Origin: Ignavibacteriales bacterium CG07_land_8_20_14_0_80_59_12
Lineage (GTDB): Bacteria > Bacteroidota > Ignavibacteria > 0-14-0-80-59-12
Reading direction: 5' to 3'
Assembly: GCA_002779395.1 (NCBI GenBank)
Contig: PEWR01000061.1
Location: forward strand, 5,104-69,103
DNA length: 64,000 nucleotides
Positions 39,581 through 46,822 of this stretch are shown one piece after another. Numbering within the stretch: the stretch's first letter is position 1; each line of letters starts with the position of its first letter. The position numbers and the translations under genes are program-made. The notes below the pieces were generated by a model. It ran no database searches. It was not told the origin of the DNA and saw only the letters and a program-made list of their open reading frames with translations.

Positions 39581-39609
39581 TTGAAACATCGTTCGGCTTG
39601 CGGTATATT
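39581..39609 (+). promoter_or_regulatory. Strong sigma70-type promoter TTGAAA-N17-TATATT for the multihaem cytochrome gene, followed by a ~125-nt structured 5' UTR
   Basis: ttgaaacatcgttcggcttgcggtatatt. Downstream there are nested inverted repeats gagaagcc/ggcttctc and cttgc/gcaag before the GGAGGAG RBS. Confidence 0.5.
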
Positions 39610-39736
39610 GTCACGTTGCGCCGTGCCTCAAGAGCTGTGCTGGGTGCAGGCTCTCGCATTGCCGCCGGCCTCTGTGAGAGAAGCCTTGCGCGGCAAGCGG
39701 GGCTTCTCGAGGCCGCCAACAACGGAGGAGAAAGGA

Positions 39737-41233
39737 ATGAGAAGGAAGAGGTTCCCGGATATACTGTACAACCCCATCAGCATGGTCGGAGCGGGCATTG
39801 CGACTGTCAGCTTCGTGATGATTGTGTTCTTGATGCTCGTTGACATCGTTACCGCCGCGCCGGCTCCCTACCTGGGTATCATCACTTTCATCCTGCTTCC
39901 TGCCATCCTCATCCTCGGCCTCATCATCGTCTCGGTCGGTGTTCTGGCGGAGCGTCGCCGGCGGCATCGCATGACCGGCATCGAAAAACCCCCTCTCCCG
40001 CGGATTGACTTGAATGAACCGAGACAGCGGACGGCGTTCTTCTTCTTCTCCACCGGCACTATCGTGCTGCTCCTTTTCAGCGCCGTCGGCAGCTACCGGG
40101 CATTCGAGTTCACCGAATCGGTCCAGTTCTGCGGCACGCTTTGCCATGAAGTCATGAACCCTGAATACACTACGTACCGTCATTCCCCGCACGCACGCGT
40201 GCGATGCGTCGACTGCCACGTCGGCTCAGGAGCGAGCTGGTACGTGCGATCGAAGCTTTCGGGCGTGTATCAGATCTACGCCGCCCTCTTCGATAAATAC
40301 CCCCGCCCGATCCCAACGCCGATCAAGAATCTGCGTCCCGCCAGGGAGACATGTGAGGAGTGTCACTGGCCGGGTGCTTTTCTCGGCGAGAAGAGGATCA
40401 CGAAAGAATACTTCCTCTCGGATTCCGGAAATTCTGCCTGGACTCTCGATATGCTCCTGAAGATCGGAAGCGGGACAGTGGCCGAGGAGCCGCGTCCGGG
40501 CGTCCACTGGCACGTTTCCAACACTATCGTAAAGTATATCGCAACCGACTCGATACTGCAGGTCCTCCCCTGGGTGAGCCTCGAGCAGCCGGGCAAGAAG
40601 CCGATCATTTACGTCTCCGAGGAGAATCCCATATCTGACGAACAAATGAGAGAAGCGAAGGTCGCGACCGTGGACTGCATGGATTGCCACAACCGCCCAA
40701 CGCATATCATACGGAATCCGACCGACGCCGTGAATGCCGCGATGGCGAAAGGAAGCATCAACCCGACGCTTCCGCTTGCCAAGAAGATCTCCGTCCAGGC
40801 GCTCATCCCTAACTACACGTCAGAGGAGACGGCGTTTGACAGCATCGGGATTCAGTTGAGGGAGTATTACCAGCAGAACTACCCGCAGATATTCACGAGC
40901 CGAAAGGGCGACATTGAATCGGCCGTAACTGCGCTCAAGGCCATCTACCAGGAGAACTTTTTCCCATACATGCGCGTCGACTGGCGGGCGTACCGAAACA
41001 ACATCGGCCACCACAATACCGCGGGCTGCTTCCGGTGCCATGACGGCAAGCACAAGAGCAGCGACGGCCGCGTCATCTCGAATGACTGCCAAACCTGTCA
41101 CGTGATCCTCGCACAGGGGAGGAGCCTCGCGAGGGAGGCGAACCTCTTCGGCCTCCCATTTCAGCACCCGGCCGATGTCGGGGACGCCTGGAAGACCACG
41201 CTGTGCAGCGACTGCCACGACGGAACACAGTAG
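39737..41233 (+). CDS. Membrane-anchored heptahaem c-type cytochrome: NapC/NirT-like N-terminal module plus an extra multihaem C-terminal domain
   Basis: Seven CxxCH motifs (CGTLCH, CVDCH, CEECH, CMDCH, CFRCH, CQTCH, CSDCH). N-terminal TM helix. NapC/NrfH-type spacing of haems 1-2 (C..CH...SPH..VRCVDCH). The start is placed at ATG 39737 with a GGAGGAG RBS. The track ORF starts at an upstream TTG. Confidence 0.85.
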   Translation: MRRKRFPDILYNPISMVGAGIATVSFVMIVFLMLVDIVTAAPAPYLGIITFILLPAILILGLIIVSVGVLAERRRRHRMTGIEKPPLPRIDLNEPRQRTAFFFFSTGTIVLLLFSAVGSYRAFEFTESVQFCGTLCHEVMNPEYTTYRHSPHARVRCVDCHVGSGASWYVRSKLSGVYQIYAALFDKYPRPIPTPIKNLRPARETCEECHWPGAFLGEKRITKEYFLSDSGNSAWTLDMLLKIGSGTVAEEPRPGVHWHVSNTIVKYIATDSILQVLPWVSLEQPGKKPIIYVSEENPISDEQMREAKVATVDCMDCHNRPTHIIRNPTDAVNAAMAKGSINPTLPLAKKISVQALIPNYTSEETAFDSIGIQLREYYQQNYPQIFTSRKGDIESAVTALKAIYQENFFPYMRVDWRAYRNNIGHHNTAGCFRCHDGKHKSSDGRVISNDCQTCHVILAQGRSLAREANLFGLPFQHPADVGDAWKTTLCSDCHDGTQ

Positions 41234-41360: not shown

Positions 41361-41389
41361 TTGAAGCTCATTGTACGGAGAGATAGAAT
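41361..41389 (+). promoter_or_regulatory. Sigma70-type promoter TTGAAG-N17-TAGAAT for the lipoprotein gene
   Basis: It lies 42 nt upstream of ATG 41431. Confidence 0.4.
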
Positions 41390-41430
41390 CTTCACGACGC
41401 CAGCTTGTTGCACATTACTCGAGGGACGAG

Positions 41431-42384
41431 ATGAAACAGACGACCTTGAAGCTACGAGACACATGGTTATGCATTGTCGCATCCGTGCTTATCCTTGGTG
41501 CGGCGCTGTCAGGATGCCAGAAGAGCAGCAACCCGGCTCAGCCGACATCAGAAGCATCCGCATCAACAAACCAGGATGCCGCCCTCTCGGTCGCGAGTGC
41601 CGTGAGTGAGAACAACGGCGGTGCGCTTGATCAGATGGGCGATGCGGCCGACCTCTCCTGTGGCCTCAGGATTCGCGGAGATTCCGAGGGGCTCATGTGG
41701 GGACACGGCGTGGGGATGGGAATGGGATTCGGTCATGGGCATGGAATTGTCGACACGACGTACAATCCGGCCACAGCTTGGTGGACGGCAAATCTGACGC
41801 GGACACGAGGCTCGGAAGACGGCAACTACTCTGCGACATTGACTCGAACGTATCAATACCAGTTCCTGGACAAGAATGGTCAGCCGCAGAAATACTGGAA
41901 GGTCACGAACGCGGGCGGAACGGTCGACACAGCCTACAGCATCCACTTCAAGATCATTCGCGGCTCCGGAGAGCACCACACTCCCCGCATATCAGCCCAC
42001 CTCACATCGCTCAGCGGCGACTGGATGGTAACAGGAACGAATACGCGAACCATCACGATAAACGGAACGTATGCCCGCACGGGCGTGGATACCGTCATGA
42101 GACATGATGCGATGAGGACGCTGAGCTATTCACTTGACCTCACTTTCAACAATGTGACAGGCCCGAGGACCGGACGGGAGGAGTTTTCGCGCAAGACGAG
42201 CGGCACGATTACCGGGACATACACTGGACTTGCGACATACACGAAGGGGAATGAGCACTCGGAGCAAACCATCAGCCGCACGATCAATATCACTTTTAGC
42301 GGTAGCGGCCGGGGAGGCATCGACGTGGACAACGACCACTTCCCCTTCGACTCCTCGCTGGGCGATCTTGACGAGAACGATTGA
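41431..42384 (+). CDS. Hypothetical lipoprotein with a His/Met-rich motif (GHGVGMGMGFGHGHG); possible periplasmic metal-binding beta-rich protein
   Basis: The start is placed at ATG 41431 (MKQTTLKLRDTWLCIVASVLILGAALSGCQ lipobox). Thr/Ser/Gly-rich beta-strand-like repeats (TRTYQYQF, TGTNTRTITINGTYARTG, GTITGTYTGLATYTKG). Confidence 0.6.
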   Translation: MKQTTLKLRDTWLCIVASVLILGAALSGCQKSSNPAQPTSEASASTNQDAALSVASAVSENNGGALDQMGDAADLSCGLRIRGDSEGLMWGHGVGMGMGFGHGHGIVDTTYNPATAWWTANLTRTRGSEDGNYSATLTRTYQYQFLDKNGQPQKYWKVTNAGGTVDTAYSIHFKIIRGSGEHHTPRISAHLTSLSGDWMVTGTNTRTITINGTYARTGVDTVMRHDAMRTLSYSLDLTFNNVTGPRTGREEFSRKTSGTITGTYTGLATYTKGNEHSEQTISRTINITFSGSGRGGIDVDNDHFPFDSSLGDLDEND

Positions 42385-42496: not shown

Positions 42497-42997
42497 CTAT
42501 GCCTTGGGCTTTCGAGGATATCCATACAACTTGGTTGCGCAATCCGGACAGATTCCGTGCGTAGCCTGCCGTCCCCCGCTCTCCTCCAGGTATTTCTCGA
42601 TAGGGAACCACTGACCTTCTTCAGTTCGGTACTTCTTGCAGTTGGCACAAATAGGAAGCAGAGTCTCCAAGTCACGGATACGCTTTTCTTCTGCCTGCTG
42701 ATGCTTGATGATCTTTATGAAGCCAAGAATAAGGAGCACAATACCCATAGCATCCGCGACATTTCCCATCTGAGCAAAAACCGTTTCGAGTGTTTTTGCG
42801 GATAGACCAAGGAGTTCGGGAAGCCGGCTGGACGGATGTTCGACGAGAACGTCGCACAAGCGACCTATGGAGAGAAAACAGACGGCTGGAAGTATTGGCG
42901 CGAGCGAGAAGAACCGATCCCTTTCTCTCCACACAGTGAAGAACCCCCAAAGGAGAAGAAAGAAGGTAAGCAGATCAACCGCAACAACTATGTCCAT
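42497..42997 (-). CDS. Small membrane protein with a C-terminal Cys-rich putative zinc-ribbon/metal-binding domain
   Basis: Two N-terminal TM helices, an amphipathic segment, then LPICANCKKYRTEEGQWFPIEKYLEESGGRQATHGICPDCATKLYG (CxxC...HGICPxC). GC is about 52%. Confidence 0.6.
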   Translation of the reverse strand: MDIVVAVDLLTFFLLLWGFFTVWRERDRFFSLAPILPAVCFLSIGRLCDVLVEHPSSRLPELLGLSAKTLETVFAQMGNVADAMGIVLLILGFIKIIKHQQAEEKRIRDLETLLPICANCKKYRTEEGQWFPIEKYLEESGGRQATHGICPDCATKLYGYPRKPKA

Positions 42998-43067
42998 TTT
43001 TCAACTCCTATCGTGTTCCCATCTTGCCAAGTGAGCTAGGCAGGCAAGGGCGCAAATGTTTCTGCGC

Positions 43068-43253: not shown

Positions 43254-43310
43254 TCAGGTGACGGTACCGTTGATGGGTGTGAGAAGGGGCTCAGAAACTG
43301 GCGAGTTTTG

Positions 43311-43384
43311 TACGCCCGGGGGGATTCGAACCCTCAACCCTCAGCTCCGTAGGCTGATGCTCTATCCAGTTGAGCTACGGGCGC
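43311..43384 (-). tRNA. tRNA-Arg (anticodon ACG)
   Basis: Cloverleaf: GCGCCCG/TA/GCTC-AACTGGATA-GAGC/A/TCAGC-CTACGGA-GCTGA/GGGTT/GAGGG-TTCGAAT-CCCCC/CGGGCGT/A. G1-U72 pair. One A-C mismatch in the T-stem. CCA is not encoded. Confidence 0.9.
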
Positions 43385-43718: not shown

Positions 43719-44984
43719 TTACCGACTCTTCCCTTTCGTGAGGGAAGTCAACTGCAGTTCGATCCGCTTCCCTTCACTCCGGGCCCCGATGATGCGGTAA
43801 TGCGCTTTCGCACGTTCCAGAGCCGCACGCGCAGGAGCTTCTTCGCCGCGCGCAAGGGCAAGCTGTCCGAGCTCCTCGTACGATTCGGCAAGGTTCAGCG
43901 GATTACGATATTCCTCGTTGATGCGGATACTTGTCTGCAGGTAAAGCTCGGCGACATCCAGGTCCCCCATGGCGCGTTGGATGCCCGCCTTCACTTTGTA
44001 AACGTCGGCCATGCCCAGACGGTCGTCAAGCTCACGGAAGACTGAAAGCGCACGGTTGGCAAATGCGACGGCGAGCGGGTAATCTCCCTGCTTCTGGTGA
44101 AGAGCCGACTTGCCGAGGTACGAGAGCCCGATGAGCGGCTTGTACTCAGCGCGAGCCGAGTAGCCAAGGCTCATGTCAAACTGCCCGAGTGCCTCGGTGT
44201 GCTCCCCCTTCGCAAGGTACATCATCGCGTAGTTGTGATGGAGCTCCGCGAGTCTGGTGAGACTCCCGAGCTCTTCGAACCGTGGAAGGACCTGCTGGTA
44301 GAAAATGAGCGCCTCGTCGTGCTTCCCTTGTATGTTCGCCAGGATGCCGAGGTCCATCGTCACGACTGCCGACATCTCGGCTTGCTTCGCCCGCTCGAAC
44401 ATGCTGCGGGCTTTCCGCATGTGCGCGGCGGCCTCCTTCAGGTCACCGCGCTCTGCAAGCGAAATACCGAGGTGGTTCTCCACACGAGCAAGGCCAAGCT
44501 GGTCCTTGGCCCGGGTGAAGTGTTTCGCCGCCTGGTGGAGGTCGGCATGGGCTTGTTCCCACTTCGCCTGCCGGAGAAAGATCTCGGCCCGTCTTGTGAG
44601 CGCCATGCCTGCAGCGCGTGCAAACCGCAGGGAGCTGCCCGCCCTCTCAACAACAAGGTCGGCAAGCCGCTCTGCAGTCGGATAGTCACCGGTCGTCACG
44701 CTGAGCGCGGCTGCCTCGTTTGCGAGGTCGAGGAAACTCTCCTTCGGCAGCGCCCTCTCGCATTCGGTTATCGCGGCCTCGAGATAGAATGATTCATCCC
44801 CTCCGCGCTTCTCGCCCGGAATGCCAGCGGCCTTTCCCAGAAGCTGCTCCTCGGACTCCTGCAGCTTTTCAATATCGGACCGTATTCTCTTCAGGAGCGC
44901 GTCGTCGCAGAACCTGCCCAGAAGGTCCCACAAGGATCCCCCCTTAGCCTCCGGTGAGGAGGCGTCCACTTGCGCCTTTTTCAT
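43719..44984 (-). CDS. Tetratricopeptide-repeat protein
   Basis: Multiple TPR-like helical repeats (alternating A/L/G/Y patterns). No signal peptide. 421 aa. Confidence 0.75.
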   Translation of the reverse strand: MKKAQVDASSPEAKGGSLWDLLGRFCDDALLKRIRSDIEKLQESEEQLLGKAAGIPGEKRGGDESFYLEAAITECERALPKESFLDLANEAAALSVTTGDYPTAERLADLVVERAGSSLRFARAAGMALTRRAEIFLRQAKWEQAHADLHQAAKHFTRAKDQLGLARVENHLGISLAERGDLKEAAAHMRKARSMFERAKQAEMSAVVTMDLGILANIQGKHDEALIFYQQVLPRFEELGSLTRLAELHHNYAMMYLAKGEHTEALGQFDMSLGYSARAEYKPLIGLSYLGKSALHQKQGDYPLAVAFANRALSVFRELDDRLGMADVYKVKAGIQRAMGDLDVAELYLQTSIRINEEYRNPLNLAESYEELGQLALARGEEAPARAALERAKAHYRIIGARSEGKRIELQLTSLTKGKSR

Positions 44985-45601: not shown

Positions 45602-46029
45602 TCCTTTCCTCCTTGGGATGTTCGAACAATGCCTGCATGAAGGCGTGCAAATACTATGCCAGTAGTCGCAGGTCATCGCAGAAAGCAACGGCAAAAGAGC
45701 TTACACTGGCCGTCTGAAGCTCTACAAGAGGGAGGGAAGGTGAAACTGTAATGAAACGTTACACCTCATCGTAACGTCCTGTTGCAGAACTCGTGCGGAC
45801 AGACCTGACCGGCCCTCTGGATGGGGACACGCGGTCCGGCCGGCGAACCCTTAGGAGCATCAGGCTGCCTGCGGGGAGTCCACCCTGATCGCAGTTTGCG
45901 ATCCACTCTTGCGAGTCTCATTGGAAGCTGCATCTGGATTAGGCGGAGGGATCTCGTCCTCAACCGGCATGGGTTGGTTGAGACAAGAAATCAGCTGAGG
46001 GAAAAGGGAGAAGACTGGTGCGCGGCTTG

Positions 46030-46102
46030 TAGCGCTAACGGGAATCGAACCCGTATTTCAGCCTTGAGAGGGCTGCGTCCTAAACCGTTAGACGATAGCG
46101 CC
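46030..46102 (-). tRNA. tRNA-Glu (anticodon CTC)
   Basis: GGCGCTA/TC/GTCT-AACGGTTTA-GGAC/G/CAGCC-CTCTCAA-GGCTG/AAAT/ACGGG-TTCGATT-CCCGT/TAGCGCT/A. Confidence 0.85.
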
Positions 46103-46109
46103 GCTGAAG

Positions 46110-46182
46110 CTGCCCGGCCAGGGCTCGAACCTGGACTTTTCTGATCCAGAGTCAGACGTGTTGCCAATTACACCACCGGGCA
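46110..46182 (-). tRNA. tRNA-Gln (anticodon CTG)
   Basis: TGCCCGG/TG/GTGT-AATTGGCA-ACAC/G/TCTGA-CTCTGGA-TCAGA/AAAGT/CCAGG-TTCGAGC-CCTGG/CCGGGCA/G. It has the U1-A72 pair typical of bacterial tRNA-Gln. It is 7 nt from tRNA-Glu. Confidence 0.85.
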
Positions 46183-46339: not shown

Positions 46340-46822
46340 ATGGCGACGTTCCGCGGCGTTGATTACTACAGTCTCGGCTCCCTCCTCTCTCCCGAAGAAA
46401 TCCTCGTCCGTGATACGATACGCGAATTCGTGGACGACAACGTTCTCCCGATTATTGAGAGGCACTACAGGGAAGGCACATTTCCCCTGGAGCTCGTCCC
46501 GAGGATGGCTGAGCTGGGCCTTCTGGGTGCCACCCTCCCCGGGAAATACGACTGTGCAGAAATGAACAACGTCGCCTGCGGGCTCATCATGCAGGAGCTC
46601 GAACGCGGCGACAGCGGTGTTCGAAGTTTCGCCTCGGTCCAAAGCGCGCTCGAGATCGCCCGCACCGCGCGGGAGATACTCGGTGCGAACGGCATCCTTG
46701 ACGAGTATCCCGTGATGCGGCACATGGCTAACCTGGAATCAGTGAAGACGTATGAGGGAACGCACGAGATGCAGACGCTCATCATCGGCGCCGACATCAC
46801 CGGAATAGAATCGTACCGATAG
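46340..46822 (+). pseudogene. Glutaryl-CoA dehydrogenase-like acyl-CoA dehydrogenase with a ~270-aa in-frame internal deletion (N-terminal ~100 aa fused to C-terminal ~60 aa)
   Basis: The N-terminus ...[52 protein letters not shown]...[25 protein letters not shown] joins directly to the C-terminal helix [54 protein letters not shown]. The whole middle beta domain and the catalytic region are absent. Confidence 0.55.

Follow-up and report, generated by a model that had tools for sequence, protein, structure and literature searches.

Fur-family regulators (Fur, PerR, Zur, and BosR) carry a C-terminal domain in which two CxxC pairs flank a unit of beta-hairpin, helix, and strand. It is the dimerisation domain of the family, and its S1 zinc site is critical for dimerisation: in BosR, mutating the corresponding cysteines abolishes zinc binding, dimerisation, and function, and Fur proteins sense metal through the S2 hinge site, not through the Cys4 S1 site (PMC6476982). 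Transmitters of one- and two-component systems, such as HisKA and GGDEF, follow PAS, GAF, HAMP, REC, or transmembrane (TM) sensors on a heptad helix in fixed register. Small Cys-rich domains also occur C-terminal to REC, namely HalOD2 and TackOD1, the predicted zinc-finger output domains of archaeal response regulators (Galperin et al. 2018, PMC5847659). Here we analyze a gene at 42497..42997, on the minus strand, of a 64,000-nucleotide stretch from Ignavibacteriales bacterium CG07_land_8_20_14_0_80_59_12 (contig PEWR01000061.1; hereafter the window, meaning the whole stretch). It encodes a 166-residue protein with three TM helices and a C-terminal Cys4-His module (residues 115-158; 42524..42655, on the minus strand like all features of the gene) whose profile resembles the Fur dimerisation domain. 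What is new is a putative signalling protein with an unrecognised Fur-like terminal domain, one that is very abundant and missing from the family libraries searched.

The module was delimited by motif scanning, conservation, AlphaFold2 (AF2) modelling, and profile alignment with hhalign. A six-frame motif scan places its core, C117-x2-C120-x26-H147-x2-C150-x2-C153, at 42539-42649, which confirms the four cysteines and the histidine that an earlier note had read in the C-terminal sequence and refines their exact motif. The invariant residues of the module family (C, C, W, H, C, and C) are C117, C120, W130, H147, C150, and C153 in the window protein, which shares with the family the Cys/His spacing, the invariant Trp, a location at the extreme C-terminus (only 13 residues come after C153), and a linker ending in L-L-P-I-C. 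In the AF2 model, the module consists of a knuckle, a beta-hairpin, a helix, a strand, and a second helix, at moderate confidence (predicted local distance difference test, pLDDT, 77). It is followed by a variable basic tail (residues 159-166, GYPRKPKA, plus the stop codon; 42497..42523) that has low pLDDT at residues 162-166 and is unconserved in the family alignment. The 37-residue module core is net acidic, with a mean charge of -1.3 and 67% of modules negative, and a K-K-x-R patch is conserved after the first CxxC. The extreme conservation of such surface-type residues (K-K-x-R, D-D, and E) hints at a conserved partner.

None of the libraries searched accounts for the module. The whole protein, module-only sequences, and the module consensus had no significant match in Pfam or NCBIfam, where sub-threshold matches (GFA, DUF5679, DUF3039, DZR_2, and similar) span one CxxC knuckle only. 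PADLOC and PHROGs returned no module match, neither the single protein nor the module profile matched a PDB sequence at an E-value below 0.06, and structure searches of the module with Foldseek gave no significant match. The earlier description of the family as unassigned was thus borne out in Pfam, NCBIfam, PADLOC, PHROGs, and PDB sequences. No description of the module was found in the open full-text literature, subscription-only literature lying outside the search. The top PDB profile match was Bacillus cereus Fur and the top Foldseek matches were PerR and Fur, both weak signals.

A direct comparison with the Fur family used a profile of four sequences only: Bacillus subtilis PerR (verified as identical to 2fe3_A) and three Fur-family C-terminal domains taken from PDB alignments. 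With hhalign, the module profile scored 77.5% against PerR alone and 94.1% against the four-sequence profile (E 1.3e-7, score 37.0, 42 columns), in an alignment that covers both CxxC pairs with a single deletion, of 6 residues, on the module side. A further module alignment, independent of the first, reached 91.7%, and the family alignment of the window protein itself reached 71.6% in the same register. When the Fur profile was permuted 300 times with its four Cys columns fixed, scores averaged 12.7 (standard deviation 3.0, maximum 26.4), and none of the 300 reached 37.0. Rubredoxin (sequence verified as 1bfy_A), whose C-x2-C-x29-C-x2-C spacing is identical, scored 1.9% over 8 columns. Because both controls score far lower, the similarity of module and Fur domain exceeds the cysteine pattern and is, at the level of profiles, remote but specific. 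Despite the identical Cys spacing, the window protein is thus no rubredoxin, a family defined by Fe(Cys)4 knuckles (C-x2-C-G...C-P-x-C-G) together with rubredoxin core residues.

Beyond the cysteines, the module and the Fur profile share I-C-x-x-C-[GK]-K-I after the first knuckle, an acidic helix, and [HY]-G-[IV]-C-P-x-C at the second knuckle. The module His aligns with His in B. cereus Fur and with Tyr in PerR and Campylobacter jejuni Fur; the latter match suggests a packing or second-shell role for the conserved His rather than that of a fifth ligand. By analogy with the Fur family, the module would bind zinc and mediate dimerisation (PMC6476982). The differences are nevertheless substantial. 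The N-terminal 98 residues of the window protein form three TM helices, without a winged-helix DNA-binding domain (Pfam, at E up to 10, returned neither FUR nor HTH), and the module has neither the hinge nor the S2 regulatory metal site. The His-rich stretch that precedes the first CxxC in Fur proteins (HYHAIC, HHDHMIC, HHHLIC) is L-L-P-I-C in the module, which is also ∼6 residues shorter, has one strand fewer ahead of the last CxxC, follows a coiled-coil linker, is joined to TM, PAS, GAF, or REC sensors, and is not detected by the HMMER FUR model.

Lacking a winged helix, the regulatory site, and any match to the FUR model of Pfam, the window protein is not a Fur-family member, but it probably shares that family's zinc-locked dimerisation domain. 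The earlier note had held that the module belongs to no well-characterised family; this is half overturned, in that a remote and specific link to the Fur dimerisation domain exists and membership of the family does not. Its further suggestion of a zinc-ribbon or redox module also divides: metal binding by the four invariant cysteines is plausible, and more so after their alignment with the Zn(Cys)4 site of Fur and PerR, whereas a redox switch survives as a rival explanation only.

An exhaustive HMMER search with residues 101-166 as query, including 16 linker residues, retrieved 19,194 representatives of 50%-identity clusters at E ≤1e-3 and 1,197 at E ≤1e-10. Host lineages include Desulfobacterota, Spirochaetota, Chloroflexota, Acidobacteriota, Nitrospirota, Verrucomicrobiota, Fermentibacteria, Gemmatimonadota, and Asgard archaea. 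The 26-residue spacer is kept in 238 of 249 module occurrences among the retrieved proteins, and 229 of the 249 lie ≤30 residues from the C-terminus; the other 20 lie farther away, internal copies being accounted for by two-module proteins. In a Pfam scan of 82 longer module proteins, the module was preceded by PAS families in up to 24, by MASE6 in 11, by REC in 8, and by GAF in 5, with HAMP, 7TMR-DISM, PocR, Reg_prop/Y_Y_Y, and dCache found more rarely. Many other module proteins are multi-TM, and short "coil + module" proteins of 60-110 residues occur. Motif scans of two independent sets of long module proteins (73 and 58) found no GGDEF motif, no histidine kinase (HK) H-box, and no HATPase G-boxes, suggesting that the module and HisKA/GGDEF-type outputs are mutually exclusive. 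Catalytic output domains are likewise absent from the 25 most frequent of the 45 Pfam families in the 82 fusion proteins, and the window protein has no Pfam match to sensor kinase or diguanylate cyclase outputs (HisKA plus HATPase_c, GGDEF). It would operate in the manner of a one-component membrane sensor, yet none of the classical outputs is present.

Because it stands C-terminally after receivers and sensors and never upstream of a catalytic output, the module is, judging from these architectures, an output or terminal element and not an input. It resembles HisKA and GGDEF transmitters in this position and in the heptad helix that leads to it, and differs from them in its size of only ∼45 residues and in having no catalytic or DNA-binding signature; its output would therefore have to be protein contact or oligomeric state. 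The statement in the earlier note that the module is appended to sensor proteins of other phyla proved correct (PAS, GAF, REC, HAMP, MASE6, and 7TM), and its reading of the module as a sensor is weakened by the same architectures. The nearest published concept is that of HalOD2 and TackOD1, compared here by description only; HalOD2 differs in having two CxxC motifs 20-25 residues apart and in being confined to a few halobacteria, and TackOD1 in having 11 Cys (PMC5847659).

Several individual occurrences illustrate the range of contexts. Eight proteins (P0101, P0102, P0103, P0105, P0106, P0111, P0114, and P0116) contain two complete modules in the order sensor-module-sensor-module, as if adjacent paralogous genes had fused, and are the only case in which a module is not C-terminal. 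In Candidatus Lokiarchaeum ossiferum (CP104013.1; locus L071, 4224-5198), the module ends a 325-residue protein with ∼7 TM helices, and a Promethearchaeota metagenome-assembled genome (MAG) also encodes it. TPR_12-type repeat proteins of Fermentibacteria MAGs (L040, L043, L075, and L084) terminate in a heptad linker and module, which shows that the N-terminal partner may also be a TPR array. The sole match in 72,556 plasmid records is an unannotated module remnant on a Dongshaea marina plasmid (NZ_CP028898.1, 36166-36303), located between IS21 and IS91 transposases and downstream of a "GAF domain-containing protein" gene; it appears to derive from a GAF-module gene broken by insertion of an insertion sequence (IS).

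The gene in the window is complete, with 166 codons plus stop in the list of open reading frames (ORFs) and their translations. It starts with ATG, has a translation that includes the C-terminal sequence quoted in the earlier note, PICANCKKYRTEEGQWFPIEKYLEESGGRQATHGICPDCATKLYG, and is preceded by a Shine-Dalgarno-like AGGAG read from the sequence 7 nt 5' of the ATG (43005..43009). Independent gene callers predicted the same 166-residue product in 36 metagenome-assembly blocks with identical neighbours. Full-length homologues form ∼94 clusters at 41-98% identity, all unnamed or annotated as "hypothetical protein", and an alignment of 25 homologues contains 23 invariant positions. Given the start and Shine-Dalgarno signal, the metagenome calls, the homologous clusters, and the invariant positions, the ORF is a real, conserved gene and no chance ORF. 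No known RNA element was found in its 5' region. With one genome considered per GTDB species, the full-length 3-TM form occurs only in MAGs of Ignavibacteriota/Ignavibacteriae, Kryptoniota, and Bacteroidota/Bacteroidetes, plus one labelled Chitinophagaceae; one MAG has two copies of the gene (L009 and L016).

Hydropathy, AF2, and conservation together delimit three hydrophobic helices, where two had been proposed earlier. Kyte-Doolittle hydropathy, whether of the protein itself or averaged over the family, peaks near residues 13, 43, and 85, and the AF2 model (mean pLDDT 80) has helices at 3-24, 33-53, and 67-112, with a short helix at 59-63. TM1 (residues 3-23; 42929..42991) carries D8 near its periplasmic end and the invariant W23 at its cytoplasmic end, and leads into a short, K/R-rich cytoplasmic loop (residues 24-29, RERDRF; 42911..42928) recognised from family K+R density. 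TM2 (residues 30-52; 42842..42910) has R46 and D49 in its periplasmic half. It is followed by a predicted periplasmic loop that begins with E-H-P-S (residues 53-75; 42773..42841; from conservation, K/R density, and AF2). TM3 (residues 76-98; 42704..42772) has D82 near its periplasmic end and an invariant G92-F93.

K/R-rich loops face the cytoplasm under the positive-inside rule, and the 6-residue loop that follows TM1 has a family K+R density of 0.43, vs 0.06 for the 23-residue loop that follows TM2. The predicted topology is therefore N-out/C-in, with the Cys-rich module in the cytoplasm. Conserved polar residues all map to the periplasmic half: D8 (D/E in 23 of 25 homologues), R46 (R/H in 25/25), D49 (invariant), E53 (E/Q in 25/25), and D82 (invariant among the 25). 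From this arrangement, we infer that they may form a site for a ligand or a cation. Searching with a profile of the TM region alone brought up no fusion of the 3-TM domain to other outputs, every protein retrieved having 161-191 residues and the same architecture, so that, within the sensitivity of this TM-only search, the domain appears specific to this family.

The stretch described earlier as a separate amphipathic helix rich in E/K/R, residues 99-114, turned out to be the cytoplasmic continuation of TM3, within AF2 helix 67-112. This signalling helix (HQQAEEKRIRDLETLL; 42656..42703; AF2, conservation, and heptad periodicity) runs unbroken from TM3 and forms a heptad linker, of 18 residues when counted up to the Cys motif, in which I107, L110, and L114 are invariant or nearly so, the series I107, L110, L113, and L114 leading directly to P115-I116-C117. 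The same pattern holds across 306 diverse module proteins, with hydrophobic positions at -17, -13/-14, -10, -7, and -3/-4 relative to the first Cys, Pro fixed at -2, and spectral power before the first Cys peaking at a period of 3.5. As judged from these profiles, a heptad helix in fixed register precedes the module, like the signalling helices that feed other transmitter domains.

A real gene, three TM helices, residue conservation, a heptad linker, a terminal position, and profile similarity to the Fur domain are directly supported, and the reading that best combines them, to which we assign a probability of about 0.5, is that of a membrane signalling protein that works as a homodimer and ends in a Fur-like, zinc-locked module for dimerisation and signal transmission. 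Under this model, a small inner-membrane protein would act as a homodimer in which the periplasmic-half cluster D8/R46/D49/E53/D82 could receive the input, for instance a cation, a proton, or a small polar ligand. TM3 would run unbroken into a two-heptad cytoplasmic coiled-coil linker that ends, in the fixed register L-L-P-I-C, at the ∼45-residue module. The four invariant cysteines most likely hold one structural Zn2+, by analogy with the S1 site of Fur, PerR, and Zur, and the module would cap the signalling helix as a terminal dimerisation/transmitter element. A signal may then shift the helix, altering the packing or exposure of the paired modules and, in turn, their binding to a putative downstream protein. 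The parts of this scheme that we infer are the topology, the binding of zinc, the formation of dimers, the direction in which the signal runs, and the presence of a partner.

A broader and more tentative proposal, which we consider possible but clearly less probable, is that the module constitutes a signalling output domain of bacteria and Asgard archaea, very widespread and so far undescribed, that turns PAS, GAF, REC, or TM signals into zinc-dependent homo- or heterodimerisation. If so, its dimerisation partners could include paralogues or bona fide Fur-family regulators with the same dimerisation fold, and it would define a non-enzymatic, non-DNA-binding branch of prokaryotic signal transduction, now counted as "sensor domain only" proteins. 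Thousands of PAS, GAF, REC, and membrane-sensor proteins from anaerobic bacteria and Asgard archaea end in the module, and, for want of a profile library that includes this tail, their names say no more than "hypothetical" or refer to the sensor or receiver domain. Recognition of a Fur-like Zn(Cys)4 tail makes it a testable terminal element, in terms of zinc content, dimerisation, and partner capture, and suggests an evolutionary link between the dimerisation domains of metal regulators and signalling proteins. A family model for the module is justified, and with it censuses of signal transduction would stop missing the module. The 166-residue form, with three TM helices, a linker, and a module, is among its simplest members and, as a minimal system, would lend itself to studying the way in which the module is driven.

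The gene neighbourhood survey of homologues proposed in the earlier note covered six family contexts, the metagenome copies of the window, ∼18 GTDB family loci, and 66 other module loci, and all-against-all clustering of the neighbours revealed no conserved partner gene. The gene is monocistronic in the window. Upstream on the same (minus) strand lie tRNA-Arg(ACG) (43310-43384) and a TPR protein (43719-44984); converging from downstream on the plus strand are a NapC/NirT-type multihaem cytochrome with several CxxCH (39581-41233) and a 337-residue protein without Pfam match (41371-42384). Neighbours of homologues vary, among them cytochrome bd with rubrerythrin, histidine biosynthesis genes, an NADH-dehydrogenase-like complex, and a large PAS kinase. 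Recurrence is limited to two-component proteins: 4 of the ∼18 family loci have a large PAS kinase or a REC protein alongside, and 11 of the 66 other module loci have HK/REC proteins. The multihaem cytochrome was rejected as a partner, as those beside the window gene and beside homologue P0026 are not orthologous and have unrelated companion genes. The upstream TPR gene was also rejected, having only generic TPR similarity to the TPR-module fusions of Fermentibacteria; in the closest relative (L021), the upstream gene is unrelated to it.

Among the alternatives, the one that fares best, although we consider it unlikely, is that the module is itself a thiol/redox switch, in which Zn(Cys)4 would be oxidised, zinc released, and disulfides formed, integrating the cytoplasmic redox state with the N-terminal sensors; the membrane form would then report redox stress at the membrane. 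Hsp33, RsrA, and the CXXC pairs of cyanobacterial FurA are precedents. The arrangement of four invariant cysteines in two CxxC pairs with an invariant His would suit such a switch, the PDB entry of the closest domain (2fe3) is titled "Zn(Cys)4 structural redox switch", the lineages that carry the module are mostly anaerobic or sediment groups, and redox or respiratory genes are frequent, though not conserved, beside family members. However, a module that comes last and follows REC receivers is placed as an output would be, not an input; the cytochromes beside family genes at different loci are not orthologues of one another; the neighbours include no recurrent redox partner, thioredoxin-like or other; and the alignment of His with Tyr in PerR and C. 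jejuni Fur suggests packing, not catalysis.

Two further readings are less probable still, to an equal degree. One makes the 3-TM domain the functional part, with the dimer forming a six-helix bundle, a small channel or carrier for ions or solutes, and the module serving as a dimerisation clamp or metal-dependent gate. It draws on D49 and D82, invariant within the membrane, together with R46 and D8, on the finding of the TM domain only in this architecture, and on a dimerisation domain being the closest relative of the module. The other treats the module as a metal sensor (Zn or Fe) or Fe-S carrier using its five conserved Cys/His ligands. Five potential ligands are indeed present and the related Fur family consists of metal sensors, yet Fur metal sensing uses the S2 hinge site and not Cys4 S1, the His-rich stretch before the first CxxC of Fur is replaced by L-L-P-I, and the architectural position of the module argues for output.

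Slightly less probable again is a nucleic-acid-binding zinc finger, which would make the protein a membrane-tethered transcriptional or post-transcriptional regulator. The conserved K-K-x-R patch is compatible with this, as is the prediction that small Cys4 output domains of archaeal response regulators bind DNA or RNA (HalOD2; PMC5847659), but the core is net acidic (mean -1.3), no DNA-binding family matches, and the related Fur domain is the dimerisation half rather than the DNA-binding half. Finally, zinc-binding anti-sigma (ZAS, zf-HC2) factors such as RsrA and ChrR have a Cys/His zinc site and are in some cases membrane-anchored, and the earlier note had raised an anti-sigma-like factor for this small membrane protein with a cytoplasmic Cys/His metal motif; we reject this very improbable reading on motif (H-x2-C-x2-C, not the H-x3-C-x2-C of ZAS proteins), position (C-terminal rather than N-terminal), Pfam (zf-HC2 not matched even with the E cut-off raised to 10), and neighbourhood (no extracytoplasmic function sigma gene adjoins the gene in the window or at the ∼18 family loci, and no sigma gene recurs).

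Some features of the surrounding DNA deserve mention. In three independent lineages, the first gene upstream of the family gene, ∼300-700 bp away and on the same strand, is a tRNA gene, with a different tRNA in each: Arg-ACG in the window, Arg-CCT in L003 (5603-5676), L010 (1230-1303), and L014 (4500-4573), and His-GTG in L013 (4246-4320). By a rough estimate, the chance expectation is <1% per locus. The gene is also a local GC minimum (0.50 at 42500-42999, where neighbouring genes have 0.56-0.63 and the window as a whole 0.59), a dip that could reflect membrane-protein composition or foreign origin. Together, the upstream tRNA and the GC dip may mark a genomic island; the window shows no att-like repeat of the tRNA. 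Opposite the tRNA-Arg, a sub-threshold Rfam match to "Plastid-ycf2 5'UTR" (43310-43384, plus strand; 26 bits vs a gathering threshold of 65.7) is almost certainly an antisense-tRNA artefact.

The downstream cytochrome and the 337-residue ORF are predicted elsewhere by gene callers as 498 and 317 residues, and the pair is not conserved beside homologues. Farther upstream, a 160-residue ORF (46340-46822, plus strand) matches the acyl-CoA dehydrogenase N-terminal domain and, with the middle domain missing, just the end of the C-terminal one; it may be a truncated or decayed gene or have a mis-called start. Close to it, tRNA-Glu(CTC) (46029-46102) and tRNA-Gln(CTG) (46109-46182) stand in tandem on the minus strand, 7 bp apart.

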